Assembly: GCA_964406795.1 (NCBI GenBank)
Contig: CAYOTA010000004.1
Location: forward strand, 46,877-110,876
Direction: 5' to 3'
Length of the DNA stretch: 64,000 bases
Origin: an uncultured Gammaproteobacteria bacterium
GTDB taxonomy: Bacteria; Patescibacteriota; Microgenomatia; Levybacterales; GWA1-39-11
A program made the position numbers and the translations under genes. Within the stretch, counting starts at the first letter, position 1. Every line of letters begins with the position of its first letter. Below, piece after piece: positions 8,126 to 45,389 of the stretch. The notes beneath the pieces are model-generated. The model ran no database searches and was not told where the DNA came from. It saw nothing but the letters and a program-made list of their open reading frames with translations.

Positions 8126-8436
8126 CTAACCAGTCGCTCCAACCAACGGCGGTTTCGCGTCACTCATGGCTACCCCCTCTCGCCGTGGCTGAGCGGTGGC
8201 GTTAGAACTCATCAGCACGTCCTCGGCCGTCCGCTGGGCCATGGCCGCGATCTGGACCAGCTCGGCCACCATCAGGTCTGTGCTCCGTTCGCTGCGCTTC
8301 TTCTTCACCTCTTCCCAGAACTCATCAACCTCCTCCAACAGCACCGCGTAGCCCTCGTGGACCGATGCCTGTTTTCCGTGCTTGGCGCGGGCGGATTCCA
8401 GCTCCCGCCTTTGGAGCTCGACGAACGTATTCACGG
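8126..8436 (-). CDS. hypothetical coiled-coil protein (GTG start)
   Basis: GTGA overlap with stop of the upstream gene at 8431-8436; the longer track ORF overlaps its neighbour out of frame. Confidence 0.4.
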
Positions 8437-8808
8437 CACCAAATTGATGAGCTTGGATTGCAGTTCGCCGGCCATGACGCTCGCCTTCGTCAGCATTTCG
8501 GACGCGCCGCAGCGTTCGATTTGATAGCACAACTCCAGCGCGGCCTGCCGGGCATCCGCAACGCCGTTGATTAGAGCGTCGAGGCGTTTCTCCACGCACG
8601 TCAGACAGACGTAGCCGCCAAGGTCGTCGCGTCGATACGGTAGCGGCTTCGATTCTCCGCAGCACGCACACAGCTTTCGGCTGACGTGGGCGTCAAGCAG
8701 CCGGCTGAGTGCGTCGCGCTCTTTTGAGATGGCAAGTTCTCTCGGGGTGGTTGCGGTCGCCACTTGCGAGAGTTCGAGGTAGAGGCGGTTGATTGTTTCG
8801 AGTTCCAT
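8431..8808 (-). CDS. Cys-rich putative zinc-binding protein (125 aa)
   Basis: CACCGESKP...CLTC motif pairs. Confidence 0.5.
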   Translation of the reverse strand: MELETINRLYLELSQVATATTPRELAISKERDALSRLLDAHVSRKLCACCGESKPLPYRRDDLGGYVCLTCVEKRLDALINGVADARQAALELCYQIERCGASEMLTKASVMAGELQSKLINLVP

Positions 8809-8826
8809 ACGTTCTAACCCATCAGT

Positions 8827-9248
8827 TCAGCGGTCCCGCCTGCCGCTGGGATTGTTGGTTTCGTCAGCGGGCGGGCCGCTGACTTCGGTGTTCGGTCCGA
8901 ATAGATGGTGGACCATCTTAAGCAGGTCCCCTTCGGCGCTGTTTGGGAACCGCATCGTTCCATCGGTTTGGCCGTAGAAGTGCAACATTCGTCGACGCAG
9001 CTCGTCGGCGATTTCCACCTTGGACCAGCCGGCCCAGCCGCCAGGCCGAACCATCCGCTCCATCGAACAATGGAAGGTGGTGGCGGTTGAGGGATCGGGC
9101 GCTCCGCTGCTCTCGTTGTCCCCGCCTTCACGCGGCGAATACGGCGCGCCACAACCATCGCACCGATCTCTGGAAGGGAGCTGCCGCCCGCAATAGTCGC
9201 AGCGCAATTGGAATTTCTGAGGCGGAGGAGGTGGAGTAAGCATACCCA
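8827..9248 (-). CDS. zinc-ribbon protein (CDYCG...CDGCG) with C-terminal PNTEVSG tail
   Basis: Internal start MGMLTPPPPP; C-terminus carries the same GPNTEVSG motif as the gene array at 17.4-20.5 kb. Confidence 0.45.
8868..8900 (-). repeat. isolated copy of the GGTGTTCGG / PNTEVSG junction motif
   Basis: gacttcggtgttcgg inside the 3' end of gene 8827..9248. Confidence 0.5.
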
Positions 9249-9250
9249 TT

Positions 9251-9782
9251 TTATACCCTTCTCGCTTCCATTGCACCGCTCCCTTCTGTACCGGAGATGG
9301 GAGGATCCGCGGCGCTATTGGCACCCGGAGGCGTTACCCGCTTGGGTCCACCTTTCCACGACATCTCCCACGAAGTGGAGCAATGGGCGACCAAGGTCTG
9401 GACGATCCGGCGAATCTGGTCCGGCGTGCGCGCAGATTTAAGTCCCGACCCTGGAATCAGGTTGATTTCCGGGATTCCGTCCAGACACGTGTTGAACCCC
9501 ACGAGCCAGGACCTTTGGTTCTCCAATCTTCTGGAGAGCATCTGAAAGACCGTTTCCGCGACGCTTTTCGGATAATGGCGAACATCGGCTCCACACCACG
9601 GACACCAATTGATGCCCACAGAGTCCACGCCGTCAGGCCGTTTAAGCCGCAACCAAATTCCGTGCGAACCCGCAGGCAGAGCAGTTTCCATTCGCAGGGC
9701 AGCAGAAAGCCTATCGCAACAAAAGCTCGACGGAGATTGCCCCGTGCTATCCCGCGGTGTTGTTGGCACGATAGGATTCATG
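9251..9782 (-). CDS. hypothetical protein
   Basis: Track ORF trimmed to internal Met (MNPIVPTTPRD); C-terminal composition is odd. Confidence 0.3.
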
Positions 9783-9804
9783 GGATAACGCAAACGGTTG
9801 GATT

Positions 9805-10134
9805 TTACTGCGCCCGGGCGGCCACGGCGGCCAGCAAAGTTGGATGCCATTCGTAAGTATCCTTGTCGGGATCAAATACATCATTCGTCATGGCAAGGTG
9901 GAATCCTCCAATCGTCCGCATGAGTCCACCTGGATGCCCTGCGAAGCATTCCGTCACGCGCTCATGGAATTTGCGGAGATGATCCACATTGTCCTTATCG
10001 AAGCAGTCCGCTCGGTCACCTTCATCCCAGGTACCATCGGGTTTACACGGGATCCCATCCTCCGCGGTGTTGAGAACGCGCATCAGTTTAAGGAGAGCAT
10101 CCACTTCCTGAGGTGTTGCCTTTGTCAGTTTCAC
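9805..10134 (-). CDS. hypothetical protein (109 aa)
   Basis: ATGA overlap with HNH gene stop at 10131-10134. Confidence 0.5.
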   Translation of the reverse strand: MKLTKATPQEVDALLKLMRVLNTAEDGIPCKPDGTWDEGDRADCFDKDNVDHLRKFHERVTECFAGHPGGLMRTIGGFHLAMTNDVFDPDKDTYEWHPTLLAAVAARAQ

Positions 10135-21484: not shown

Positions 21485-22054
21485 TCAACGCGGGGCAACT
21501 GAACTGGCCGCTTTGTACCAGTCTTCGGCATGGGCATAGACTTTCATCCCGACGTTGGTCCCGATCACCGTGAACAGCCCGTTGACCGTTTTGTCATACA
21601 GCCCAAGCAACTGGCTTCCGCTCAAGTCTCCTTGAATCGTCGCATACATTTTGACCGAGTACGGATTCTTCACCTCGGTCCTCATCTGCGCCGGAAGTTC
21701 GAACACCGCCTCCGTCACGTCCTTCAACAGATTTTCAACCATGAACCGCGGCCAATCATGACGGGCAACAAACGGCAGAAACGGCGGCTCAGGATTGCTG
21801 TTCGGGATCAGGTAGCACAGCCCGACCTTTACGCCGCACCCGTGAGCAAGCATCCGAAACAGCGCCTCCAACTGGCGCAAGGTCTCCCGCTGACGCCCGA
21901 CAAGGCGCTTAGTGTCCGCCGGGTTCGCCGTGATTGTGACCTCGCACGTCCCAGCCGTCTGCTCAACCGCGAAGTCGAGTTCATCCGGTCGCTTGGCCAT
22001 CAAGGTCACCACGCGCCCCAACAGCTCCAGCGCCTTGTCGAGCCGGTCGTTCAT
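21485..22054 (-). CDS. hypothetical protein (189 aa)
   Basis: ATGA overlap with upstream gene. Confidence 0.55.
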   Translation of the reverse strand: MNDRLDKALELLGRVVTLMAKRPDELDFAVEQTAGTCEVTITANPADTKRLVGRQRETLRQLEALFRMLAHGCGVKVGLCYLIPNSNPEPPFLPFVARHDWPRFMVENLLKDVTEAVFELPAQMRTEVKNPYSVKMYATIQGDLSGSQLLGLYDKTVNGLFTVIGTNVGMKVYAHAEDWYKAASSVAPR

Positions 22055-22416
22055 TCGGGTGCCTCCTCACCGGGCACCACCGTTGACGTGATCGACTTAC
22101 GCGGACGCCCGCGTCCCCTCGTTTCCTCCGGTTCAAACAACGTCGGTTGCGCCGGGTCTTCGAGGCTGTCAATCACCTCGTCGGTGACGGTTTCGCAGTA
22201 CCGAATGCGGGTCCTGACCTTCGGCGCCGAGTCCGAGCAATCGATCAGGATCGAGAACGTGACGCTCACCTTTTTCTCGTCCGAATCCGATTGCACCTTG
22301 TCGATTGCCGTCGCGTGCCGGCGATACAGCGTGTCCACGTTGGCCGTGATCGACTTCAAAACACCCGACTGAATCTCACCAAGCTCGCGCTCGGTCGTGA
22401 TCTTCTTTCGTGCCAT
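22051..22416 (-). CDS. hypothetical protein (121 aa, MARKKITTERELGEIQ)
   Basis: Internal Met with a 74-nt gap to the DnaC-like gene. Confidence 0.45.
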   Translation of the reverse strand: MARKKITTERELGEIQSGVLKSITANVDTLYRRHATAIDKVQSDSDEKKVSVTFSILIDCSDSAPKVRTRIRYCETVTDEVIDSLEDPAQPTLFEPEETRGRGRPRKSITSTVVPGEEAPE

Positions 22417-22490
22417 ACAGTTCCTTTCAGTATTGGTTTTCCTACCGACATCGCGACGATCCCATATCGTTAGCCGAATTGCTAGCGCAT

Positions 22491-23318
22491 TTATCGTCCG
22501 AGATAGTTGCCACGATTGCCCGCACGCTGAGACCCGCCCTTGATGGTATTCCACGCGAACGTCGCCTCCCGGAGCCGACTGGCCATGCGCGGTCCGAACA
22601 CGTCCCGGAACTCCGAAGGCGGGATGTTCATCGTCATCACCGTTCGCCGCTTCGCTCCGTACCGGTCGGCCAGAACCTCATGCAACGTCGGCAACTCGTC
22701 CCGGCCACCGACCGAAATCCCGATGTCGTCCAAGATCAGCAACGGCGTTGCCTTTGCTTGTTCCACCACGTCCGGCGCGTGCCGATCATCGTAGCGCCGC
22801 CGAATCCCACGCAAGAACTCCGCCTGGGTCCACATCCGCCCGCCCGATCCGGCGTCAATCCGGTGCCGTAGAATCGCCACCGCCAGGTGGGTCTTGCCGT
22901 TCCCGTACTCCGGACTTTCGAGCATCAGGAACCCGACAGCATTCGAACTCTGTGCGAACTCGCGGGCCTTCGCCAGCACCCGCTGATCGTCCGGATGTTC
23001 GACCCGCCAGTTGTCGAACGAGGCCGCCACGAGGTTCAGCGGCACCCCGACCGCCGTCAGCCGCTCTCGCATCCAGCATTCCCGGCAATCCTCCCATGCC
23101 AGCGCAAACGCCGTCTCCATCGTTCGGGCGGTCTCGGTGCGGTCCAAGCGTTGCACCCCGACTCCGCACGCCCCGCAAGTCCGCTCCCACTTGGCTTCAT
23201 CAGCCCCAAGCAACTCCGCGATCCGTGGTCGAACCGCCTCGCGCCGCGCTACCGCCTTGGCCAACAGTTCGTCCATCCGGTTCTGGATGTCGACTGGCTT
23301 GTCCGTCGTAACCGTCAT
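22491..23318 (-). CDS. DnaC/IstB-like AAA+ helicase-loader ATPase
   Basis: Walker A GNGKTHLAVAI and Walker B LLILDDIG. Confidence 0.8.
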   Translation of the reverse strand: MTVTTDKPVDIQNRMDELLAKAVARREAVRPRIAELLGADEAKWERTCGACGVGVQRLDRTETARTMETAFALAWEDCRECWMRERLTAVGVPLNLVAASFDNWRVEHPDDQRVLAKAREFAQSSNAVGFLMLESPEYGNGKTHLAVAILRHRIDAGSGGRMWTQAEFLRGIRRRYDDRHAPDVVEQAKATPLLILDDIGISVGGRDELPTLHEVLADRYGAKRRTVMTMNIPPSEFRDVFGPRMASRLREATFAWNTIKGGSQRAGNRGNYLGR

Positions 23319-24219
23319 CGGTCCCCCCTCATCGGTGTCGTCAAGTTCCGCAGTTCATCCGCCCACTCGTCCGCCGTCTGCCCGTTGTCGGAGCTTCGAT
23401 TGCCATTCGCGCCCTGGGCAATCTCAGCCCCCACCTCATTCCAGAACCGGGCCAGCATCGGGAGGGTCGTGGTCTTGCTCGCCCGCCAGCCCTTGCACCG
23501 GGTCGCCGCCTCGAACACCCGCCCCACCTCCTCGGCGGTCACGCCCGCCGCAACCAAACCCGCTGCCGCCGCCCCATCCTGCCTCGCGTCCGGCACGTAC
23601 ACCCGCCCGAACCGCTGGCCATAGATGCCAGCGAACACCCGGACCACCTCCTTCGCCTCGGGGCTTGGCGGAACCGCGAGCTTGCGACGACGGGAAGGGG
23701 CGTCCCCTGCCAAGGGGACTGTAGGGGTTCCCCTCTTTGGTTCTACTGACGGTTCTACTGACGGATCAAGGGGGGGTGTTTTCTGCCCCCCTAGGGGTAT
23801 GTTTCTTGCCCCCCCCCGGGGGGTGTTTTCTGACCCCCGGGGGATATGATTTTCGACCCCCCCATTTTCAGTTGCTTCAACGGCTTCTTCGGAGGTCTCT
23901 GCCGCTGCTTCTCGTGCCAGTTCAGTCCTCGACTTTCTCGTCTCGCGGTCCAGCCTCTGAACGTCCCAAACTAGGATGCTCGATGTCTGGGAACCGTTCG
24001 GGCGAAATCTCGGTGTCCTCGTAAACCACTTCTCCGATTCCAGCTCGGCCACCATCGCCTTGGCCGTGCCTTCCGAAATCCCGCACCGCACCGCAATTCG
24101 CGTGATCGATGGCCAGCACACCCCTCGTTCATCCGCCAAGTCCGCAAGGTAAAGCGCAACGAGCTTCTTCGATGCTGGGGTGAATGGTAGGACCCAAATA
24201 GGTGCCGATATGTGAACGC
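23315..24219 (-). CDS. replication initiator-like HTH protein (GTG start)
   Basis: Winged-helix segment KKLVALYLADLADERGVCWPSITRIAVRCGISEGTAKAMV; central peptide repeats [IT]P[RL]GG are encoded by the iteron-like DNA repeats; GTGA overlap with the 79-aa gene. Confidence 0.5.
23770..23863. repeat. four abutting iteron-like units G(5-7)-T-rich core (TGTTTTCTG-like)-C(5-9), 21-25 bp each
   Basis: gggggggtgttttctgcccccc / ggggtatgtttcttgccccccccc / ggggggtgttttctgaccccc / gggggatatgattttcgaccccccc. Confidence 0.6.
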
Positions 24220-24459
24220 TCACGCCGCTCCTCCGATCCTCAGGTTTCTCCCCTGCTCGAACCGCTCGTCGCAGTACCAGCCGCCCGCACCATCGATCAG
24301 GATCGGGAACCAGCGAATGCCCATCTCGTCCCGGACGAATACATGGCCATGCGCGTTGGCCCGAAGCCTGATCCTCGCCCGCCCAGGCGGCAGTCCACGA
24401 ATCGGTTGAACCGGCTGAACCCCAACCACGCACGGCTGCCCATACATCACCGTCGCCAT
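24220..24459 (-). CDS. hypothetical protein (79 aa)
   Basis: Good RBS GGGAGGTAAGCG before ATG; first gene after a 214-nt intergenic gap. Confidence 0.5.
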   Translation of the reverse strand: MATVMYGQPCVVGVQPVQPIRGLPPGRARIRLRANAHGHVFVRDEMGIRWFPILIDGAGGWYCDERFEQGRNLRIGGAA

Positions 24460-24659
24460 CGCTTACCTCCCAACGAAAAACGGACCATCGAAAGGGAGGC
24501 GGGTGGTGGTAGAACCCCGCAGACGAAGGCTCCCAGCCGAAGCCGGTCACCGCGCCGCCCTTCCAATGGTCCAGTCGTTTTCAACATCTGCTCTTTCCGT
24601 CACCGGCTCGGGTACCACGCCTTGCCGATGCCCCACATTTAGGTCGCCGCAGGTCCGTT

Positions 24660-24935
24660 GTCTAGCCTGTTCGCTACCCCGACCCCGACCGCGACCACGA
24701 CCACGACCCCGACCGCGACCACGACCGCGACCCCGACCGCGACCACGACCGCGACCCCGACCGCGACCCCGACCGCGACCCCGACCCCGACCGCGACCAC
24801 GACCACGACCACGACCCCGACCACGACCCCGACCCCGACCCCGACCGCGACCGCGACCCCGACCACGACCCCGACCGCGACCGCGACCCCGACCACGACC
24901 ACGACCACGACCCCGACCACGACAAGTCGATTCCC
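24660..24935. repeat. hexanucleotide microsatellite (CGACCN), about 45 units
   Basis: cgaccc / cgaccg / cgacca units repeated without interruption. Confidence 0.9.
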
Positions 24936-24958
24936 GTCCTTGCGACCGCCGCGTTCAT
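24674..24958 (-). CDS. low-complexity [S][W/G/R] dipeptide-repeat protein (94 aa)
   Basis: Minus-strand frame of the microsatellite; its ATG forms an ATGA overlap with the upstream stop. The plus-strand PRPRPR frame is rejected. Confidence 0.45.
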   Translation of the reverse strand: MNAAVARTGIDLSWSGSWSWSWSGSRSRSGSWSGSRSRSGSGSGSWSGSWSWSWSRSGSGSRSGSRSGSRSWSRSGSRSWSRSGSWSWSRSGSG

Positions 24959-25284
24959 TTCTGGCTCCGGTTGAATTTCTTGATCCGTGCCGCCTCGATG
25001 ATCGCGCCACGCCCGACCAGCACGCGTCCGTCCGGGTATGGCTCGACCTCATTGAACAACGACGGGTCTTTCAGCGAGTCGCTGAAGCGTCCGGTGTCGG
25101 CAATCCACGCCGCATCCTCCAGCACGATCTCATGCGGTGTAACCGCCACCACGCGCCCGGTGTCGATCATCGTGACCGTCCGAATCAGGTAATGCTCGCC
25201 GATCTCCCACGGGCAGTCCGCCGTATTGGTTTCGGTCGGGCGCACCGACATCAGTTCTTTCAAGTCTGCGAGTGTGATTTCCAT
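24955..25284 (-). CDS. hypothetical protein (~109 aa, MEITLADLKEL)
   Basis: Internal Met of track ORF 24955..25344. Confidence 0.4.
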   Translation of the reverse strand: MEITLADLKELMSVRPTETNTADCPWEIGEHYLIRTVTMIDTGRVVAVTPHEIVLEDAAWIADTGRFSDSLKDPSLFNEVEPYPDGRVLVGRGAIIEAARIKKFNRSQK

Positions 25285-25354
25285 TTGCTTTCCGTTCTCC
25301 GGTGTTGTCCCGGGGGCCGGACTACCGAGTCCCGCACCCGTCACATGCGCCGGT

Positions 25355-25561
25355 TCATTCCAATTCCCACTGCGATTCGAGCTTGCCTGTTATCATCGCC
25401 TTTGCGCCACAGCATGTCGCAAATTTCTCCGCCCACACGATGCCATCCTGGTTCGTCACGCTCCACCATCCATCTGGCAAACGTGTCAGCAAGTAGCTTC
25501 GACCGCCGTGCTTGAACGTGGTTCGATACGCCCGATTTTTCACAGAACGATCATCGTGCAT
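25355..25561 (-). CDS. hypothetical protein (68 aa)
   Basis: ORF immediately downstream of the SbcC-like gene. Confidence 0.4.
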   Translation of the reverse strand: MHDDRSVKNRAYRTTFKHGGRSYLLTRLPDGWWSVTNQDGIVWAEKFATCCGAKAMITGKLESQWELE

Positions 25562-27433
25562 CGGTTGCCATACACGTCCAGTACATCACGTCCGTCGATC
25601 ATCCGGACCGTCCCGGGCACCGTCGCGTCGATCATGATCGCTTGATCGATCTTCCCATCCCGAATCAGTTCCTCCATCCGGATCGCCACATCCTGACGGC
25701 GGGAAAGCGACAGCCGTCCCATCTCGTCCAGCACGACCAACCGGAAGTTGGCGGTCCGCGCCAGAGCCACGCTGAACCCCGCGTAGGCCAGCAGTTGCTC
25801 GGTCCCGCTGAAACTCGTGTGCGGCACCCATCCTCCGTCCTCGGTCCTCCCAAGCTCACCGTCCCGGAACTCGAGCTTCGACCGAAGCAGCCCTGAAGTG
25901 AAGTCGTCCGAAAGCTTCAGCACCTCCGCAAACGCCCTTTCCGACACGTCCTTGACCACCTGATTGATGGCCTTCACCGCCTCGGCATAACAGGTGGCCG
26001 TGCACTCCTCGCGCAACACCTCAGATTCCTTCGCCTCACGTGCCTCCAGCAGGCGGTCGTAGTTGTCGGACTCGGTCTTCGCCTGCTCAGCCTGCGTCAC
26101 CGCCAGCGTGGCCTCGGGCAATGCCTCCACCTCCTTCGTCAGCTCGGCGATGCGCCCCGACTGATCGGTCTCGGCCTCCGCCAGTTGCGTACGGTAGCCC
26201 ATAAGTCGCTTCGTCTGTGCCTCCAGTTCGTTCGACCACTTCGCTCGCTGCGCCTGCGCCTGATTCCATGCCTCCAACTCCTGCTCGTACTGACCGGCAA
26301 TCGAAGCGATGTCCTCAAATTCATCATTCAACGCCTGCAACTGATCGTCGGTCCGTGCCAACCCAGATTCCAACTCAACCACGCTCGCCCGCTCGCGCTC
26401 GATCAGCTTCGAGTTGTCCGCGTGTTGTCCACAGGTCGGACAGATTGTGACGCCCGCCAGCCGTTCGATTATGGACCTGGCCATGGCCACTCGCTCGGCA
26501 ATGTTTTCGTGCGCCTCCCTGATCTCTTCGATCTCCGATATCGCCGCATCGTAGTCGGTCAGGATCTTCGGCTTGATCGGCTCTTCGCCAGGGTCCTTCG
26601 CGCCCTCCAAGGATTTGCTCGCGATCGCCACCACCGCCTCAGCCATCGAAATCTTCACCTTTAACGACGCGACCAACGCATTGCCGTCCAGAATGGTCCT
26701 CAGCTCGCCCCGCTTTGCCACCAGCGCGTCACGCTTGGCCTTCAGCTCCTCCATGTTCTCCGGTCGCTTAGGAAGCGAGAGCGGCAACGTCATGCCGGCG
26801 AACGCGCCAGCCGCCACCTTGTGCCTGACCTTCGCGTCCTTCGCCTCGGACGACCACGATGTCACCAGTTTCTCCACCGCCGCCTGGGCGGTCGTGCCAG
26901 CCTCGGCGAAGCCATCCGTGACCTCCGCCCCGAGCTTGCGCAATACCGCGTCCCGGACCTTCGCCGGACTCGCCTTGATCTTGCCAAGCTCAGCCTCAAT
27001 CGTCGCCGGCTCGATCTTGACGTTGCCCGCCGCGGCGAAGATCGCATCGATCCGTTCGGCTCCAGTCATCGCGAAGAACTGCCGGACATCCACCAACATC
27101 GGGTTGAGCATCAGATCGAACGGCACCGCGCTTTCGGTGCTTACCTTTCCCTTTGCGTTGCGCGTGAACCGAAGTCCGGACGTGCGCCCGGTGTCGAACG
27201 TCGCCTCGACCTCCATCAGGCCCGGGTCGTCCGGATGTCCGGCCAACGCGCCGTAAAGCGCACCCGGGAGCTTGCCAATCGCCGGCAGATAGCCCGTGAG
27301 CGCCAGCCGGAGCGCGTCGGGAATCGTACTCTTGCCGGTGAAGTTGTCGCCGCAGACCAACGTCAGCGATCCAAGCTCATGCTCGAACATCTGACCCTTG
27401 AAGTTGTTCCCTACGAGTTTCGTGACGTGCATG
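25540..27433 (-). CDS. SbcC/Rad50-like SMC-family ATPase
   Basis: Walker A GDNFTGKST, central coiled coil with zinc hook CPTC, D-loop/Walker B VVLDEMG. Confidence 0.7.
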
Positions 27434-27472
27434 TCGTTTTCTTTCCTTTTGGTTTCAAACTGACCGCCAATC

Positions 27473-28261
27473 TCAGAATCCACTCGGATGGTCGAAGTCA
27501 GGGACGGTGATCATCAGCGCATTCATGTTGCACTGGATGAACAGGCTGGTGGCCAACGCCTGAACGCTGGTGTCTCCAAGCTGGATTCCATTCGCCGCCG
27601 CCTCCGCATGAATCACCGCCGCGGTCTTCACGCACTCCCCATACATCCGCCGCATCTTGGTCAGCGCCGTGTCCACCTTCTCCCACGACTGACCAACCTT
27701 CGCCGGGGACGCCGCTGGTGCCCGTGACGCCACAGTCACCGTTCGCTCCGGAGGTGTGGGCGTCGCCGCCTCGAACGGAATCTCGTCCGGCTCGGGCGCG
27801 TAGTCGTGTCTGGCCCTGGGCGCCGCCTGCCGAGTCGGAATGACGCTCGCCGGTAATGCCGGTTGAACCGCCTGAGGCGCCGCGGGCCTCGAGTGCTGGC
27901 CCGTCCGCGTCGGGTCGTTGAACTCAACCGAGCAATTGTCCCCCGCCTGAATCTGCAAGGTCGTCACCCCCTCATGAGTGTTCAACATCGTCTTCAGTCC
28001 GACGGTCTTCCCCATCTTGCCCGCCCCGGCGATCACGTACAGCCGGTGGCCCTTCGCGTCAGGCTTGATCGCGTCCCACTTGAAAAGGACCTTGATCTTC
28101 GCCCCGTCGTCGTCGCCCAGAACCACGTTCTGAAGCGTCCACGGCCCGTAGTTTCCTTGGCCGCTTTTCGCCGGCCACACTTCAAGGACCGTCCCAGCAA
28201 TGCACTCCAACGCCGTGTTGGTCTCCATCGCCAACGCCTGTCCGACCGTAGTTACGTTCAT
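27473..28261 (-). CDS. hypothetical protein (262 aa), possible OB-fold N-terminal domain
   Basis: First gene after an AT-rich gap; RBS AGGAAAAAA before ATG. Confidence 0.45.
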   Translation of the reverse strand: MNVTTVGQALAMETNTALECIAGTVLEVWPAKSGQGNYGPWTLQNVVLGDDDGAKIKVLFKWDAIKPDAKGHRLYVIAGAGKMGKTVGLKTMLNTHEGVTTLQIQAGDNCSVEFNDPTRTGQHSRPAAPQAVQPALPASVIPTRQAAPRARHDYAPEPDEIPFEAATPTPPERTVTVASRAPAASPAKVGQSWEKVDTALTKMRRMYGECVKTAAVIHAEAAANGIQLGDTSVQALATSLFIQCNMNALMITVPDFDHPSGF

Positions 28262-30826: not shown

Positions 30827-33800
30827 TCACGCGAAGGGGACGGTCAGGGTCGGGGTGTCGAACGCGAGGATGTCGGCAGTAACGCCCCGGCTCTGCCCGT
30901 TACCGTCGCAGATCGTGATGTCCCATCCGTGCCACGTGTCGTGCACGGTCAACCCCGGCGATTCCAAACGTCCCGTGAATGATTGACAGGTCACGGTCTC
31001 GACCGTGGTCGGGCGCCAGCCAAGCCAAGGACCTCCGGGAGCGATCTGCCACGTATCGCCGTTGCATTCCTCGCGTTCACCAATGTCCATCGTCGAAAAT
31101 CTGGTCCAAGTGACGTCCCTCCTCGTCATTCGCATCATGAACGATGGGGAGTCATTGAACAGGCTACGCCACGTCTCCGGAAACGCCTCGGTGATGTCCG
31201 AGTTTTCAAGATTCCACCGGAACTCAACAGCCTCACGATAGGTGTAGAGCACCCAATTCGATCCGTCGCAATCGCCATTCAGCCACGACGATGACTCAAC
31301 ACCTTCCCCTACCGTGTCCATCCACGTGCCAAGGCTTGGGTCAGGCGCCACCGAACCGCTGCCGGCAGTCAGCCACACCTCGGAAGTTCCATCGCACGGC
31401 ACGCCGCCTCCAGTTGCATCCACCGCACCGACTGGATCATATCGCTCCCCTCGGTTCCGGCGCATCTGCGGAATCGCCGGGACCATCACGCGCACGGTCG
31501 TAAGGAGGTTTACAGCCGATGACAGTTCATTGAACTGGCTGGCCATCGCGTCCGTGTTTGGCAACGGACCAAATCCTTGCTGGTTCTCGCCACCAGAAAC
31601 GTCCTGAGGAATGGTCGTCATCCACCGGTTGCCGAACGCTTGGAGACAGAGGTTTTCGAAGCTGAAGTCAAAGGTCGAACTCGTGCTGTGCTCGCATGCG
31701 TAGCTCGCCGTCGTCTCCCCATCGACGTACCCCTCGCACATCGCACGGAGGTAAAGTTCCATAACTCGGAAAGCATCGTGCTCAAATCTCGTGTCATGAA
31801 CATTCTGCGCATCGTTTCCATCGTCGTATGGTTCAGGAATCAGTTTCGTCAACCGCAATGTAGGGTAGCATGACCCAAACGGATTGTCGGGTAATCCTGA
31901 CGCAACACCGTTGATCGCCTCATCGCCGATGCGGACCTGGCAATGCGTGCCGTTTGTCTGGTGGACGAGGTAATCTCTAATTCCGTTCTCGGCAGTTCGG
32001 TATTCCTCGTTTCCAAGCGTAATAAGGTCCCATGACGCGACATCGCGAGGAATCACAGAATCCGCCGAATCACAATGGTGCAAGCGTCCAGTCAACGTCA
32101 CCCTAAGCACCTCGTCGTGCGTTGTCCCGCTGTCCCATTCCACGCTCTCGATCTCAATGTCCGGCTCATAGATGCGACAGGAGCGGTAGAAGTTGGCGCG
32201 ATACGCCTCGCACGTCGGGTCTCCAAAGCAAAGGGTCGTGTTCGCGTTGGAAATTCCACCGACCGTGACGCCCATTTCCGCGTAATTGTAGCCGCTTGGT
32301 GACTCCGGAGTGATGACGTATCCGCCGGCATGATTTCCGAATGCCATGTGGTTCAGAAGCATCCGGTCCCCGCCAACTTCCGGGCCATAGAAATGGCATC
32401 GGTTGAGCGTGCTCCAGTAGTCGGTGAACGCCCCCGGCTTCCAAATCGAGCTCTCGCTCGGGTGGTATGGACGAGTCTCCACCCCAAGCACCCAGCGGTT
32501 GCTGTAGTCCTGAGGTGGTGCGACCAACCGAATTCCGTCCGCGTCGTAAAGCTCGGTGCCGCCCTCGTAGGTGGTGGCTCCAAGGACCCCAACGAACTCC
32601 TCGCCCGCCTGGTATACCCGATCCTGATACCGGATGTTCCCCGTGCGTACCAGATAGCGCCGCCCACGCCGGATCTCGCCCGACGGAATCCTATCACGGT
32701 CAGGGCCAATGCCTCCCCAAGCGTCTGCAGGCGCCGAGCCAGCCAAGCCCATGACGTGCCGGCGAAAGTACAAGATCGACTTCCCGCCGCTCACCTCATA
32801 GCCAACCATCTCCTCGCGCCGGATCACCCGCACCACCTGGGAGAGCCGGCGGAACACGTCGAACACCGCGTTTTGATTCACCTCCGCCCACGCCGGCTGA
32901 GTCTCGGGCTGCCCGCTGATGTTCCAGATGCAACCCTTTGCGAAGTACGAGTCCGACAATTCAGTCGCCTGCGTTTCGTACAGACCAACTCCATCCGGAG
33001 CCCCTTGGCTGGCAAACGCCGCCCGGCAAAGCACAAACGCATCATGTATGCCCGGCTTGTACGCATACAACTCGGTGAACTCGATCAGCAGTTGCGCATT
33101 ACCGGTGTCGCGAAGCGTCAAGCTGGTTCCGAGCACCACCTTCATCTTCGGTCGCCATGCGGGCGTCGTCATCATCCAGATTTGTCGCACCGATCCGTTC
33201 TCGTCGGGCGTGATGATCTTCGACTCCACCATCGTCCCGTCGTCCCAGAGTTCGATGGTGACCGCCGAGGCCAAGTCATCGGCGACAATCAAGGCCGAGG
33301 CGCAGACGAATCCTTCCGCCCATTCGTGCACATTTCCATCTCCAGTGAACGGCACCACTGCTCCCGAAGGAGCGTTGTCACGCAATTGGACCGTCGGATA
33401 GCTCGGCTGGATCGATCCAGCCGTCTCGGTACCGATGCTCGGAGATAGGTGATATTGCGACGCGAAGAACCTTTGGAAATCGAAGGCGTTCCCAAGATGG
33501 TAGCTCTGATTGCGCCGGTCTTCAGCGGTGCCCCTAAACTCCGAGACGAACGCATTGAGCACTCGTGGGATTCCCTGGCTCGCGGTCTTGCGCAGGTACG
33601 CCTCGCCCGTGTACGGCCCTTCGATCCACTCGGTGAACGGCAAGATCGTCGCTGTCCCATCGTATTGGAACACGATGTACGCCCACGGTAGGTACGCGAT
33701 GCCTCCAACGTGGGTCGGTTCCTCGGGACAAGACCCGCTGAATGTCGCGGTCGATCCGTCCACCAAGCTCGTGAAGAACGGCTGGTAGTTCGTGATCTCC

Positions 33801-34390
33801 GGATCGACGCACGACGATGAATCGACTGGTGGTGTTGGCAAATAACCACCGTAGGCGTTCCCGTGCGGCGACGTGAGTGATGCCCTGATCTTCCAGTGCT
33901 CCCGTGCCAGAGTGAAGGCCGGGCTCGCCAGTCCTCTGGTGTTCGGATCGTAGGCTCCCCTCTGAAGTTTCGCGAGCGTCCACGCCGTCTCGTCATCAGG
34001 CTCTTCGATCAGCCACGGCAGATCATAGAACCTCGTGTTCTCGTCGTTCAGATTGATGGCCGATGCTCCAAACACGTAGGCGTTGATGAACGCCGCCACG
34101 TTCGCCCCTTCGAAGTCACCAGGACCGCTAAGCGGCCATTGGACGTCCTCGGGCTTGAGGTGCTGATAGATGGTGAAAAACTCGTGGTTCGGAGGGAACG
34201 CAAAAAATCCCTCACCCGGATTGCGAATCTGACGGCAGAGCGACAGAAGGTAGAAGAAAAGGCGGAACGTCGGATCGCCCAAGCCCGACTTGAGGCGGTC
34301 ATTGAACGCCGCGGCAAGCTGCGCGAACTGCGATGACGTGATTCGGTCACCGGTTGCAACGGTTGGCGCCCGAGTGAACGTGACGGCCAT
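30827..34390 (-). CDS. giant virion/tail-associated protein (1187 aa)
   Basis: Largest ORF of the tail module, downstream of TMP and Dit-like genes. Confidence 0.6.
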   Translation of the reverse strand: MAVTFTRAPTVATGDRITSSQFAQLAAAFNDRLKSGLGDPTFRLFFYLLSLCRQIRNPGEGFFAFPPNHEFFTIYQHLKPEDVQWPLSGPGDFEGANVAAFINAYVFGASAINLNDENTRFYDLPWLIEEPDDETAWTLAKLQRGAYDPNTRGLASPAFTLAREHWKIRASLTSPHGNAYGGYLPTPPVDSSSCVDPEITNYQPFFTSLVDGSTATFSGSCPEEPTHVGGIAYLPWAYIVFQYDGTATILPFTEWIEGPYTGEAYLRKTASQGIPRVLNAFVSEFRGTAEDRRNQSYHLGNAFDFQRFFASQYHLSPSIGTETAGSIQPSYPTVQLRDNAPSGAVVPFTGDGNVHEWAEGFVCASALIVADDLASAVTIELWDDGTMVESKIITPDENGSVRQIWMMTTPAWRPKMKVVLGTSLTLRDTGNAQLLIEFTELYAYKPGIHDAFVLCRAAFASQGAPDGVGLYETQATELSDSYFAKGCIWNISGQPETQPAWAEVNQNAVFDVFRRLSQVVRVIRREEMVGYEVSGGKSILYFRRHVMGLAGSAPADAWGGIGPDRDRIPSGEIRRGRRYLVRTGNIRYQDRVYQAGEEFVGVLGATTYEGGTELYDADGIRLVAPPQDYSNRWVLGVETRPYHPSESSIWKPGAFTDYWSTLNRCHFYGPEVGGDRMLLNHMAFGNHAGGYVITPESPSGYNYAEMGVTVGGISNANTTLCFGDPTCEAYRANFYRSCRIYEPDIEIESVEWDSGTTHDEVLRVTLTGRLHHCDSADSVIPRDVASWDLITLGNEEYRTAENGIRDYLVHQTNGTHCQVRIGDEAINGVASGLPDNPFGSCYPTLRLTKLIPEPYDDGNDAQNVHDTRFEHDAFRVMELYLRAMCEGYVDGETTASYACEHSTSSTFDFSFENLCLQAFGNRWMTTIPQDVSGGENQQGFGPLPNTDAMASQFNELSSAVNLLTTVRVMVPAIPQMRRNRGERYDPVGAVDATGGGVPCDGTSEVWLTAGSGSVAPDPSLGTWMDTVGEGVESSSWLNGDCDGSNWVLYTYREAVEFRWNLENSDITEAFPETWRSLFNDSPSFMMRMTRRDVTWTRFSTMDIGEREECNGDTWQIAPGGPWLGWRPTTVETVTCQSFTGRLESPGLTVHDTWHGWDITICDGNGQSRGVTADILAFDTPTLTVPFA

Positions 34391-40919: not shown

Positions 40920-41372
40920 GCGACGAAGCAGGAAGTCCACGCGGTTGGTTCCCAGCATGGCCTGGAAGGCGGGGATGGCGGCGGTGACGCGGGAGTTGGT
41001 GGGGTCCAACGCTTCCTGGTAGCTGGCGCGGAGCAGGAAACGGGCAAGCGGCACGTTGGCGCCCGGGAACGCCACCTGGATCAGGGTAGCCCACTCCTCG
41101 TCGGTGAGCTCGGCGAACACGCGGGCCACCGGAATCGTGTAGGGCGGCGGCACGACGATGGAGCCGCCGCGCAGCCAGTTGGTGCCGTCCTGGACATCGC
41201 CGGACCGGACCCAGACGGGGAGCTCCACCGCGCCCTCCGCGCGCTCGGCGTACGGGCGAGGAACGCCCACGATGCCGTTGGTGAGCTGGGCCCAGTGGGT
41301 CTGCCCGAGAGCCAGCCCAGTGACGAGAGCAGAAGCAACGAGACCGAACAGAAGTTCACGTTTCACCATCAC
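40914..41372 (-). CDS. secreted protein (152 aa) with N-terminal signal peptide
   Basis: MMVKRELLFGLVASALVTGLALGQT signal peptide. Confidence 0.5.
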   Translation of the reverse strand: MMVKRELLFGLVASALVTGLALGQTHWAQLTNGIVGVPRPYAERAEGAVELPVWVRSGDVQDGTNWLRGGSIVVPPPYTIPVARVFAELTDEEWATLIQVAFPGANVPLARFLLRASYQEALDPTNSRVTAAIPAFQAMLGTNRVDFLLRRP

Positions 41373-44300
41373 TTGAATCCTCCGTGTTGGGTGGTTGCGA
41401 CGATGTTCGTGGACGCGGTGTCGAAGGCTAGGCGGACCACGATCAGGTTGTTCGTCGAAAGATCGATCGTGGTTTCAACCCCCACGACGTTGCGGCTGGT
41501 GACCGTAGCTGCACTTGCCCACGCGCCAAACCCCACCGTTGGCGCGCTGGCGTTCCCTCCGGTGAACGTCGCCGACGTTTGCACCTTGTCCGAGGCAGTC
41601 CGGGCGATACTCACCGCAAAGGTCAGCGGTCTGGGCGTGAAGGCGCTGGCGATCGATGGCACCCCCACTTGGAGGTTTGTCTCGGTATTGACCAGCACCC
41701 CGAAGTTGCCCGTGACGGCGGACGCGGAGTTGTCCAACCGGACCACGATGTCTCCCGAGACCACGTCGCCGACGTTCGGCAAGTTGACATCGCTGATATT
41801 GAAACTCGTGATGGTTCCCCAGGAGGTGGAATTGGTGATGATCACCGTGGGCGTGATGCCGCCAATCGTGGGGGCTACGGGCACGTACGCGCTGGCATTG
41901 GTGCCGCTCTTCTGCCACCTCACGTTCATTGCCCCAGACGGTGCGGCTGGAGTCGAGTCGTTGAGGTTGTACCGCCGCCCGTCCTCCGTGCCGTCATTGT
42001 TCACGTACAATGGCGGCGTGATCTCTGAAACCTGAATCACGGCGTTGGAGCCAACTCCGGTGACCTGCCACAGCCAGGTGGGAAATAGATCGACCGACTG
42101 GATCTTGAGCCGGGTGACGTTGGTCACCTCCGCGGCGAAATCGTCGGTGATGGTCAGCGGCGATCCGCCACCGCCGCCGCCCAACTCCGCGGCCCACGAC
42201 CCGTTCTTCCGCACATAGCCCGTGCCGTCGCTTGGGGCGTCCGCGACCTCGGCCATGGCGGCGAGACCGAGGCTGGAGCGCTGAGCGGCCGCATTGGCGG
42301 CGGTGAGCAGGGCGCGACCCGCGGAAGTGCTGTCGGAGACCTCGCTGGCGGGGTGCGTGTGGCTGGCAGGAGTGCGGGCATCGCTCAGCCGGGTGTCGGT
42401 GCCCAGCACCACCTCGTTGGTCGCGGCGTTGCCGCTGGCCGGCACGTTGCGCGCAGCGGCGGTGCCGGCATCGGAAATCGTGCTGAGCGCCTGGGTGCCG
42501 GTATGGTTGGCCCGGGCCCGGTCGGCGGAATGATAATGCAGGCTGGTGTCGCCTCCGCCCACGAGATCAGAGGCCCCGCTCGCCGCGGCGATGGCGGCGA
42601 GATCGGAGTCCGCCGGCTGAAAATCGAACGAAGTCCACGCACCGTTCTGACGGGCGTAGTAGGACGAGTTCGTGGGCGCGTCGTCCTTGCGCGCCATGGT
42701 GCCCAACGCGGGGTCGGTCCCGGTGTAGAGTAGTCCGTACGACGCGCTGCGCATGATGCGGGCCCGGGTGCCGGAATCGTACAGGTAGAGCAGCACGCCC
42801 GACTCACCGGTCGCCGAAGGCGGGCTGGCAGAGAGAAGGGTTGTCCCCGAGACGCCGACGTCGACGGTGGCGTTGGTCCGCGCGGCGTGGACGGTGACGC
42901 CGTCGGTGTCGGAGTTGTCGTTGAGGACCATGCGGCCCGCAAACTGGCCGGTGTAGTCGCGCGAGAAGACGGCGATCTGGCCGGAGGCGCTGTTGGTCGT
43001 CCCGACGTTGATTTGGACGGTAGCAAGTGCCGCCGGCCCCCCGCTTTTGTTCCAGACCTGAAACCCTCGCTGGGCATTGGTCTCCACGGTCATGGCCCAC
43101 GGGTAGGTCGCAGATTGCGACGCGAGGGCTGTCCGGATCGCCTCGGTGGTGAGTTGGGTGGAGTCGATCCTCGTTTCGCTCAGACCCACGACCGGTTCCA
43201 CCTGCACGACGGAGGCCCGAATGTTGTTCACCAACACCACGTTGGTGCCGCCGACGCACCGGATCTGGCCATCGTAGAGGACGCGATTGATGTCGCCCCG
43301 AACATCGGAGGCCCCGACCAGAACGATGCCCAGCACGCTGGCCGGATTGATCACGCGGTTGAGCTGGAGATCGAGCCCGGTGATGTCGGTCGCCTGAATG
43401 CCGGCCTCGAAATTCTGCGTGCCGACGATGGTCACGTCGGTGACGGAGAAGTCCCGCCAGCCCAGATCGGTCTCGGCTTGGCCGCCAAAGAGAATGCCGA
43501 ACGAGGAGGAGGTGCCGCGACATCCCGAGATGGTGCCGCCGGAGATCCGCATTGAATCACCGCTCAGTCGGATTCCGACGTCGTTCGCGCTGCTCCCGTA
43601 CTCGCTGATCGTGTTCCCGCTGATCGAGGTTTCGGAGTTCCAGAAGGTGTTGGGGGAGATGCGAGTGTACCCGGCATCGATGCCATGCCGGCCCGCAAAA
43701 CGGATCGTGTTGCCGCTAACTACGGTGCCGAGGCCGGTGATCCAGTTGGTCGTGCCCGACCCCCATTTATTGGTGCTGAGGTGATATTCCCGCGTGCCCA
43801 CGGCAGGCACGGCGTGGATCGGGAAAGCGGCAATCCCAAGGCCAACGTTGGTCATGACGTTGCCGCTGATGATGTGATCCGAACCGTGCGCCTTGATGCC
43901 GGTGCCGCGCGTCGAGAAGACCCGGTTGCCCTTGATGGTGGAGGGGCCGGCGGCCACGAGGTAAACCCCGTTGTCGCCGCACTCCTGGATCAGGTTCTGT
44001 TCGACGTTGAGGGTGGGCCAGTCGTTGGTCTTGTTGAGCGCGCAGACCCCCTGGCCGGTGCCGAAGATCTCGTTGTCGATCGCCTTGCCCGAGCTATCGC
44101 GGGTGACGATTCCGGCCCCGTTGTTGATGCCGCTGACGTAGTTGGTGTGGCGCCAGAAGCCGGTGATCTGGCTCCGGCGGACGGCCCACGTCTCTCCCCC
44201 GTCGATGGAAATGCCGGTGGATTTCCCGAGGACCGCGACGCGCTCCGCCGAAAAGTTGGTGACGTTTTGGGCGAAGAGGGCGATGCGATCGAAGCCGACG

Positions 44301-44886
44301 TCGCTCACGAAGGTATCCGCCGTTTCGGAGCCGAGCAGGCGCAGGCCTTCGATGCGGACATTGTCCGCGGCGACGCGGACGAGGTTTGTGAGGATGGACA
44401 GCTCCGCGATGGTCCCCTTGCCCTGGAGCGTCTGCCCCGCGCGGGTGACGACCAGGGGGGAGCCGATCCAGTGAGTGCCTTCGGGGATCTCCAGCGTGGC
44501 GGGGCCGGCATCCAGCGCAGCCTGGAGGAGGGCGGCCTGGTCATTCGTGGCGTTGGGCCGCACCCGATACCACCGGGTGTCATGCACCAGGTTGGATCGG
44601 TCGGGGAAGATCCACCGGCCCGTCCAGCTTCCGGACCCGAAAACGAACAGGTTGGTGCTCTCGGCGGAGGCGCGGTCGAAGGCGAGCAGGCGGAGGGGAA
44701 ACTCGTTGCGCTGGGAAAGGCCCGAGACCCAGATCTCGGCGCGGCCACCTTTCGAGACCGCCGCGGGTTCCAGGGCCAGGACCTCGTCCACGGTGTCCAT
44801 GGCCCGGACGGTGCGGACGTCCGGTGCGGCGAAGGCGCTGGCCAAGAGGGCGAGCCATAGCCCGAGAATGGAAGCGATGGTCTTCA
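41369..44886 (-). CDS. tail fibre/tailspike-like protein (1172 aa) with N-terminal signal peptide, parallel beta-helix region and HxH fibre repeats
   Basis: MKTIASILGLWLALLASAFAAPD; beta-helix rungs such as GNRVFSTRGTGIKAHGSDHIISGNV; HYHSADRARANHTG and ASHTHPASE repeats. Confidence 0.6.
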
Positions 44887-44888
44887 TG

Positions 44889-45389
44889 TCATCCCGATAT
44901 CCAGGTTCGAACCGCGTAGGCATCGCCGTCATCCGTTTCCAACACGCTGTCCCCGTTGTCCGACAGACTGCTGGCGGCGGGATCGGTTTTCAAGATCAGT
45001 TGCCATCCGCTGATAATCCCGTCGCTGCCATAGCTGTTGATCGTTCCGGCTTGCGTCCAATCACCGCTACTTTCCGCCAACAAAGCGGCAATGTTGGCAT
45101 ACCAGAATGATCCGATCTGCGCTTCGCTGCCCCCCACGCGAATCTCGTCCAACGTGACGGTTCCTGATCCTGGCAGCAGTATCAGGTAAGGACGATTCTT
45201 TCCGACTTCCACTTGGTAATACGATGGCCCTCTAAGACTGGTGCTCAACGCTCCTGCCGTGACAGTGACGGTTACCGGTGCATGATCGTCACCAGTCAAA
45301 CCTCCGATTCTTCCCCATGCCGTGAAACGGATCGAACCGCTCCAGTTGGCACCGGAGTCGTCTTTCATCGTCTGAGCAATGGTTGTCAT
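44889..45389 (-). CDS. hypothetical structural protein (166 aa)
   Basis: ATGA overlap upstream. Confidence 0.45.
   Translation of the reverse strand: MTTIAQTMKDDSGANWSGSIRFTAWGRIGGLTGDDHAPVTVTVTAGALSTSLRGPSYYQVEVGKNRPYLILLPGSGTVTLDEIRVGGSEAQIGSFWYANIAALLAESSGDWTQAGTINSYGSDGIISGWQLILKTDPAASSLSDNGDSVLETDDGDAYAVRTWISG

Follow-up and report, generated by a model that had tools for sequence, protein, structure and literature searches.

The repeat array and its open reading frame

The window analysed here, a 64 000-nucleotide stretch of contig CAYOTA010000004.1 (positions 46 877 to 110 876), derives from a tailed phage and carries genes for a large terminase, a portal protein, a helicase and a methyltransferase. 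Among genes that all lie on the minus strand, it contains a hexanucleotide repeat array that appears to encode a small protein built of Ser-Trp, Ser-Gly and Ser-Arg dipeptides, immediately downstream of the gene for a small partner protein. Tandem Repeats Finder (TRF) identifies one strong array, at 24676–24923, with 41.3 copies at period 6 (score 321) and a score of 356 at period 24. Every other TRF array in the window scores 130 or less, so that nothing like it is expected by chance. A regular-expression search resolves 40 perfect CGACCN units (plus strand) at 24680–24919; five positions are invariant and the sixth is C in 15 units, A in 13, G in 12 and T in none. The array therefore spans 240–248 bp and 40–41 units. 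A first-pass annotation, made from the sequence alone, had recognized the array correctly but had put its size too high, at about 270 bp and 45 units.

On the minus strand the 40 units are read as TCG-NGG, giving Ser followed by Trp, Gly or Arg. The corresponding open reading frame (ORF; 24674–24958, minus strand, including the TAG stop) encodes 94 residues and yields the product that the first-pass annotation had quoted; the assignment draws on the ORF list and translation, on composition and on homologous ORFs at about 80 other loci. The product has a mass of 10.0 kDa, an isoelectric point of about 12 and a composition of 44% Ser, 18% Gly, 14% Arg and 14% Trp. It begins with the motif MNAAVARTGID (24926–24958, minus strand), for which an alignment of 45 distinct leaders gives the family consensus MNAAILRTGFD. 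The order of Trp, Gly and Arg in the window array is indistinguishable from random. An origin by recent block duplication was considered and rejected, as this order is no more repetitive than that of shuffled arrays (P = 0.39).

The partner gene (24955–25284, minus strand) encodes 109 residues (MEITLADL...NRSQK) with a predicted Sm/LSm/Hfq-like fold, and is translationally coupled to the repeat ORF. The ATG of the repeat ORF (24958–24956) overlaps the TGA of the partner ORF (24957–24955) as ATGA; this overlap, also described in the first-pass annotation, can be read directly in the sequence. In addition, a Shine–Dalgarno-like GGAG (24965–24968, minus strand) lies 6 nt 5' of the ATG, within the final codons (RSQK) of the partner gene. 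The same arrangement, GGAG/GAG-N6-ATGA, is present in most of the related loci.

A conserved two-gene module in uncultured phages

The comparison of related loci shows a conserved two-gene module, partner gene followed by repeat ORF and ATGA-coupled in most lineages, in many uncultured tailed phages. The repeat ORF adjoins a partner homologue at about 60 distinct IMG/VR loci and at about 18 of 20 loci from metagenome-assembled genomes (MAGs). The MAG bins in which the module occurs represent many phyla, and the sequences concerned are mostly contigs of about 35–40 kb that are probably phage genomes. In each case the layout is a conserved 11-residue N-terminus followed by a (Ser-X)n hexanucleotide array. 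The products range from 37 to 105 residues, and neither their length nor the order of Trp, Gly and Arg is conserved. Ser makes up 44–50% of the repeat chain; the net charge of the arrays is +1 to +19 (median +9), with a median of zero acidic residues. At four loci the gene order is reversed, so that the repeat ORF precedes the Sm-like partner, and in seven cases the repeat gene is present in two to four tandem copies with the same leader and differing arrays.

A search of viral contigs for (CGACCN)6 returned at least 120 stretches. Among the matches listed there is a second class of repeat ORF with a basic leader (M..RKQKYR), such as MARSSKQKYRSLW. A protein of 85–90 residues, which hhalign shows to be distantly homologous to the partner (probability 93.7%, E = 2e-7), precedes each of these ORFs. 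The leader type thus co-varies with the partner subfamily, as would be expected if the leader contacts the partner. Also among the matches listed, 55 of 87 loci with TCA-type arrays and 33 of 120 with AGC-type arrays are of the mixed, Trp-containing kind. IMG/VR additionally holds many pure arrays of the (AGCAGG)n/(TCAAGG)n type that read SRSRSR in one frame and have no Trp, leader or partner. As judged from their sequences, these Trp-less arrays are a different class of simple repeats.

Few of these phages are represented in GenBank. A megablast search of positions 22000–28000 against GenBank phages gave no near-identical match, and searches by protein found the module in only two phage records, both uncultured viral genomes, one of which annotates a 43-residue repeat ORF as a hypothetical protein. 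Used as a query, the repeat protein itself retrieved no homologues, owing to its low complexity.

The reading frame

All six frames are open across the window array, the other five reading as GR, V[GAV], RP, T[PAT] and D[PRH]. The variable base occupies the wobble position in two of them, the plus-strand Arg-Pro frame and the minus-strand Gly-Arg frame, and the latter continues the frame of the partner gene beyond its TGA. An extension of the partner by read-through into (RG)41 is therefore attractive at first sight, because the variable base would be silent at its wobble position and because eukaryotic Sm proteins bear RG tails.

The codons used in 63 distinct arrays discriminate between the frames. 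Ser is encoded by TCG (932 codons), TCA (257), AGC (237), TCT (96) and TCC (21), and the following X position by GGG (454), TGG (429), CGG (311) and AGG (158), corresponding to approximately 35% Arg, 34% Gly and 32% Trp. Each array is nearly pure for one type of Ser codon. Both TCN and AGC types exist, although no single substitution that retains Ser converts one into the other. Ser-[Trp/Gly/Arg] is the sole reading common to all Ser-codon types; the other five frames change identity, turning for instance into GA, LE or AP in AGC-type arrays, and Gly-Arg becomes Gly-Ala or Gly-His/Gln across types. This exchange of Ser codon families with retention of Ser-[Trp/Gly/Arg] identifies the minus-strand Ser frame as the coding one, in agreement with the first-pass annotation. 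The competing possibility which that annotation had named, coding by the plus-strand Pro-Arg frame, falls with the same comparison, as the RP translation is not conserved among the Ser-codon types.

The leader provides further evidence at the protein level. Over 45 distinct leaders, the summed entropy of the 11 codons is 9.9, 7.5 and 16.2 bits at codon positions 1, 2 and 3, respectively, third positions being about twice as variable as first and second positions. All four GGN codons are used for Gly9, and both CGN and AGR codons for Arg7. This pattern is that of protein-coding sequence under purifying selection. In 39 of 46 distinct ORFs with a recognizable leader the start codon lies within an ATGA or GTGA overlap; the other seven start at a separate ATG 2–57 nt past the partner stop, which may be TAA, TAG or TGA. 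Whatever the arrangement (ATGA, GTGA, TAATG, TAGATG, or a separate Shine–Dalgarno sequence and ATG), it is the Ser frame that is entered in every case.

The separate starts and the reversed gene order at some loci exclude read-through, or a frameshifted extension of the partner, as a general mechanism. The (RG)41 extension was rejected on the further ground that its frame does not persist in the TCA, TCT and AGC lineages. Two plus-strand ORFs, RP (229 residues, 24503–25192) and T[PAT] (285 residues, 24658–25515), were set aside as spurious, since their frames are not conserved and they overlap well supported minus-strand genes. A purely noncoding microsatellite is excluded by the conservation of frame and leader. 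Decayed, non-periodic versions of the repeat, found at four loci, are still rich in Ser, Arg and Trp. Taken together, the comparisons make it very probable that the array is part of a real, translated protein gene within a conserved module.

Authenticity and stability of the array

Nine groups of contigs from different metagenomes have identical partner genes, and within each group the arrays are 100% identical in length and sequence. The recovery of identical arrays with identical flanks from independent assemblies shows that they are not assembly artefacts, a possibility that the first-pass annotation had raised against its own reading. On these alignments the array is real and stable over short times, and no short-term instability of unit number was seen among arrays with identical flanks. 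Where the partner genes are 91–93% identical, the arrays differ in unit number (31 versus 38; 16 versus 19) and are only 70–76% identical. The array identity is lower than that of the flanks, and the array therefore evolves faster than its surroundings.

The first-pass annotation had expected slippage to vary the length of the protein rather than to switch the gene off, and had proposed a comparison with related phages. That comparison bears the expectation out: unit number does vary, and the products of the relatives, which cover the whole length range given above, are all in frame. The locus does not have the properties of a phase-variable contingency locus, as the 6 bp unit keeps the frame.

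Many short-read contigs end in or just before the array, including the Logan assembly of this phage, which stops 21 codons into the ORF; contigs of this kind were noted at 13 of the catalogued loci, among others. The arrays are thus systematic assembly breakpoints, and they may create false 'genome ends' in viral catalogues.

Codon restriction and evolution of the array

In the window array none of the 68 synonymous third positions varies (41 Ser and 27 Gly or Arg codons), and the first base of the X codon is split nearly evenly among three bases. Across the arrays GGG makes up 90% of the Gly codons, compared with 23% in the adjacent partner genes, and CGG and AGG together make up 91% of the Arg codons, compared with 30%. 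Trp is present in all 63 arrays, at a median of 13%.

From these sequence patterns we infer that concerted evolution and selection together account for the frozen bases. Frequent gain and loss of units would homogenize every position, leaving one Ser codon per array, and selection would hold Ser at the odd positions and, at the even ones, a mixture from which Trp is never missing. As TGG is the sole Trp codon, homogenization would pull all units into the NGG family. In no other codon family do all changes of the first base yield Trp, Gly or Arg and avoid stop codons and Cys. Retention of Trp, a single codon for it and homogenization would thus suffice to produce five invariant bases and one free base.

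Targeted mutagenesis of the kind associated with diversity-generating retroelements was considered and, on the array sequences, rejected: the window holds a single copy of the array and hence no template, A is absent from the variable base on the coding strand of the window array, and the arrays are stable across samples.

The partner protein

The partner has 113 confirmed relatives in IMG/VR and 1425 in a large protein collection. A profile search of 1.84 billion cluster representatives gave 1633 family members at E ≤ 1e-3 and 983 at E ≤ 1e-10, i.e. a family of at least 1633 clusters at 50% identity. The members are nearly all 90–130 residues long. Among the long members inspected, two are tandem double domains, which is compatible with the formation of oligomers, and no fusion of partner and repeat was seen.

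The structure predicted for the partner comprises an N-terminal helix and, after it, a five-stranded antiparallel β-sheet with a strong bend, the arrangement that characterizes the Sm fold. The model thus predicts an Sm/LSm/Hfq-like protein, which is probably oligomeric. A Foldseek search of the BFVD with the partner gave weak matches only (KleE-like and DUF6948, E of about 3e-4). The partner has no match in PHROG or NCBIfam, and a profile search against the sequences in the PDB gave nothing below E = 0.49.

Genomic context of the module

In the window the module is flanked by an SbcC-like ATPase and by an O-like initiator with a DnaC-like loader. The repeat ORF is separated by 214 nt from the next ORF with a good ribosome-binding site. 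This ORF (24220–24459, minus strand, ATG at 24459) encodes 79 residues with no family match, and lies between the gap and the initiator. A 411-residue ORF that begins at a GTG at 24550 is probably over-extended, because the HTH_36/O-like match begins near 24220.

The gap contains an imperfect, GC-rich hairpin of 91 nt (24572 to 24482, minus strand), followed by UUUUU (24480–24476), GGGAGG (24471–24466) and the ATG at 24459. From its sequence the hairpin looks like an intrinsic terminator parting the repeat-gene operon from the replication genes. The 214 nt gap as a whole folds no better than shuffled sequences (z = −1.3), and a simple terminator scan missed the hairpin. The succession of repeat, gap and replication genes, to which the first-pass annotation had drawn attention, is present in the window but is not conserved at the other loci. 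There the next gene abuts the repeat ORF, overlaps it (as TGATG at locus L222) or lies on the opposite strand, and the neighbouring families differ.

The neighbours were surveyed through the PHROG families matched by 213 flanking ORFs, of which the 25 most frequent on each side were considered. These families are DNA-metabolism or structural genes, and none of them constitutes a constant third gene of the module. The annotated neighbours include helicases, DNA polymerases, a primase, a DnaB-like helicase, proteins that anneal single-stranded DNA (ssDNA), nucleases and methyltransferases; most neighbours are unannotated.

Proposed function

The explanation that best accommodates the observations as a whole, to which we assign a probability of about 0.6, is that the array belongs to a translated gene in a conserved module with an Sm-like protein, for which the repeat protein may supply a nucleic-acid-binding tail in trans. 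The mechanism itself is more tentative, at less than even odds. The repeat region would be an intrinsically disordered, polycationic and Trp-rich chain in which composition and valency matter rather than fold; the freedom of length and order, with composition retained, suggests a disordered chain of this kind. The N-terminal 11-residue motif would dock the chain on the Sm-like partner, and the Arg and Trp side chains would bind RNA or ssDNA multivalently. In early infection, replication or recombination, the Sm-like core would then have its low-complexity tail supplied in trans by the repeat protein. The Sm-like partner, the positive charge, the aromatic residues and the replication and recombination neighbourhood together make binding of RNA or ssDNA the most likely role.

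A bolder proposal, which we consider possible but doubtful, is that the Sm-fold protein and the separate Ser-[Trp/Gly/Arg]n chain form an unrecognized, widespread phage system. The Sm-like core would display many disordered Arg/Trp chains, and these would condense the RNA or ssDNA of the phage into a compartment for replication or recombination, or else would act as a multivalent Trp hook against a host factor, for example a defence nuclease, an Argonaute or Rho, and disable it; the NGG codon design would keep the array evolvable. If the Sm core does carry a tail in trans, the module would be a prokaryotic-virus parallel to the eukaryotic Sm proteins with low-complexity tails, and a candidate for condensate formation driven by a phage.

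Several points weigh against the proposal of a nucleic-acid-binding tail in trans. The gene is known from sequence only, and no phage that carries the module is cultured. No Sm, LSM or Hfq sequence model matches the partner, nor does any Pfam family even at E values up to 10; the Sm-like assignment comes from the predicted structure only, and SH3-like barrels are common. In a weak test, an AlphaFold2 prediction for an artificial fusion of leader, repeat and partner, run with a partner-only alignment, gave a predicted local distance difference test (pLDDT) score below 50 for the leader and no confident docking. The strict third-position G of the NGG codons could reflect a constraint at the RNA or DNA level. 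Finally, we infer nucleic-acid binding from charge, Trp content, fold analogy and neighbourhood, which would also allow a protein target or the membrane.

A protein target is the basis of the first alternative, in which each Ser-flanked Trp is a 'hook' that enters hydrophobic pockets of a host factor, of a defence protein or of the Sm-like partner itself, with Arg and Gly as spacers, so that the protein serves as an inhibitor or a scaffold. Every array keeps Trp, always flanked by Ser, with order and length free, and this is the grammar of the W-motifs of GW182/TNRC6 and of the viral GW/WG 'Ago-hook' suppressors. Small early-region phage proteins often inhibit host factors. The Sm-like Rof and T4 GoF are discussed as modulators of Rho or of mRNA fate. 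However, the uniform positive charge and the replication and recombination neighbourhood fit nucleic-acid binding at least equally well, and the MAG bins imply a very broad host range, which speaks against a single, specific target in the host. We therefore regard a Trp hook as unlikely.

Less likely again is a function of the nucleic acid itself, with (NGG + 3 nt)n acting as an autoregulatory RNA with one unit per partner subunit, as a G-rich structure or as a recombination or replication site, and with translation secondary. Such an element would explain why G occupies the third X-codon position in roughly 90% of Gly and Arg codons and in only 23–30% of those in the neighbouring gene. The array RNA folds somewhat better than shuffled sequences (z = −2.6), and Sm and Hfq rings bind short periodic RNA motifs. 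Against this, the three bases other than NGG switch wholly between lineages (TCG, TCA, TCT and AGC) and always encode Ser, the N-terminal peptide is conserved as protein, and the degenerate, non-periodic versions keep the amino-acid composition. No Rfam family matches positions 23000–26000 at E values up to 1, and the sole Trp codon TGG combined with homogenized units is the simpler account of NGG.

A membrane-active Arg/Trp peptide, or a toxin neutralized by the upstream protein, acting in exclusion or in the timing of lysis, is improbable. Membrane-active peptides rich in Arg and Trp are known, such as (RW)n, indolicidin and tritrpticin, and a small upstream gene with an ATGA overlap resembles the layout of type II toxin–antitoxin systems. 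Yet a chain with 44–50% Ser is very hydrophilic, the repeat protein has no signal peptide or hydrophobic segment, and the genes around the module are those of replication and not of lysis. A precursor of a ribosomally synthesized and post-translationally modified peptide (RiPP) is marginally more improbable than this. The short conserved leader and the hypervariable, Ser-rich core, which could be modified by dehydration, cyclodehydration or glycosylation, for example, do have the architecture of such precursors, and the tandem copies with the same leader in some phages are a feature often shown by RiPP precursor genes. However, the 25 surveyed families include no YcaO protein, lanthipeptide synthetase, radical SAM enzyme or glycosyltransferase, the only constant neighbour is a predicted Sm-like barrel and not a winged-helix RiPP recognition element, and the leader has just 11 residues.

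The least probable of the alternatives is that the protein is not a gene product as read here, the array being an artefact, coding in another frame ((RG)41, RP or T[PAT]) or encoding an attenuating leader peptide for the replication genes: the six open frames, the continuity of the GR frame with the partner, the short-read contigs that end inside the array and the terminator-like hairpin and U-tract after the window ORF would agree with it, but it is largely refuted by the identical arrays from independent assemblies, by the lack of conservation of the GR, RP, TP and VG translations, by the separate starts (7 of 46), variable partner stops and occasional reversed order, and by the downstream context, which is not conserved across loci.

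Relation to known systems

A close parallel to the proposed nucleic-acid-binding tail in trans is found in eukaryotes, where SmB, SmD1, SmD3 and LSm4 have an Sm-fold core with an Arg-Gly dipeptide-repeat tail that contacts RNA or partner proteins. The phage module likewise pairs a predicted Sm-like fold with a low-complexity dipeptide repeat containing Arg and Gly. It differs in that the repeat is a separate ORF and not a C-terminal tail, in that the unit is Ser-X with one third Trp and not Arg-Gly, and in that the partner has no detectable Sm sequence motifs. The RS domains of SR splicing factors are long alternations of Ser and basic residues, disordered and of variable length. The phage chain also alternates Ser with basic residues, but Arg fills only about one third of its X positions, Trp and Gly being just as common there, and there is no RRM or other domain, so that it does not belong with the RS domains. 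In the W-motif regions of GW182/TNRC6 and of the viral Argonaute hooks, many Trp residues are flanked by small residues in disordered chains of unconserved order. The phage repeat is similarly Trp-rich, Ser-flanked and order-free, and is set apart by its strict two-residue period, its strong basicity and its size of about 10 kDa.

Ser-X arrays encoded by short DNA repeats of variable number also occur in the Ser-Asp repeats of staphylococcal ClfA, ClfB, SdrC and SdrD and in serine-rich repeat adhesins. Models of Ser-repeat adhesins are the only library matches of the repeat protein, in NCBIfam, and they are weak and compositional (E of about 1e-3; 14–17 bits compared with cut-offs of 999–2500). 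The adhesin repeats are acidic stalks of large, secreted, wall-anchored and glycosylated proteins, whereas the phage protein is small and basic and has no signal peptide, ligand-binding domain or anchor; it is not a member of that group. The C9orf72 GGGGCC expansion is a pathological hexanucleotide repeat that gives rise to dipeptide-repeat proteins by translation without a start codon. The phage repeat is also G-rich and open in all frames, with poly-GR and poly-PR in alternative frames, but it is ATG-initiated, conserved and, by the codon patterns described above, under purifying selection. With (RW)n, indolicidin and tritrpticin the phage protein shares a cationic, Trp-rich composition; in contrast to such antimicrobial peptides, it is nearly half Ser, has 37–105 residues, is probably cytoplasmic and comes from a replication module.

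Precedents thus exist for Ser-X dipeptide repeats, for RS domains, for GW repeats and for Sm proteins that bear low-complexity tails. As far as we could find, these known kinds do not include a stand-alone phage Ser-[Trp/Gly/Arg]n protein that has an Sm-like partner. No description of the repeat protein or of the module was found among open-access papers and preprints, no Pfam, PHROG or NCBIfam model covers either protein, and no Rfam family covers the array region. The family is large and uncharacterized, with at least several hundred arrays in IMG/VR. At about 45% Ser and 13% Trp in strict alternation, the repeat protein is among the most extreme in composition for a conserved protein, and the array offers a case study of how concerted evolution and a single Trp codon may shape a coding microsatellite.

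The module also presents a problem for annotation and assembly, in that short-read assemblies break at the arrays and gene callers skip the ORF or fuse the wrong frame. A collection of 15 billion proteins does not contain the window product, its ORF being skipped by gene callers. At L222 (ENA ERZ1292644 contig, 8362–10047), the Val/Ala frame of the array is fused to the true downstream gene, giving a product of 561 residues.

Other features of the window

The O-like initiator ORF (about 23315–24220, minus strand) contains approximately four iteron-like copies of GGGGG-N-GAAAAC/T-A-CCCCC at 23771–23864, detected by TRF at periods 23–24 and 47, and 2.2 copies of GGTTCTACTGAC at 23739–23764. By analogy with the origin that lies in gene O of lambda, these repeats (23739–23864) are probably the replication origin of the phage. 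Downstream of the DnaC-like loader, a 167-residue ORF (22051–22554, minus strand) has a terminal AT-hook-like motif, RGRGRPRK (Pfam AT_hook, E = 0.0011). Two ORFs of 1187 residues each (30827–34390 and 41369–44932, minus strand) match no PHROG family and show no relationship to one another; they probably encode large structural or tail proteins.

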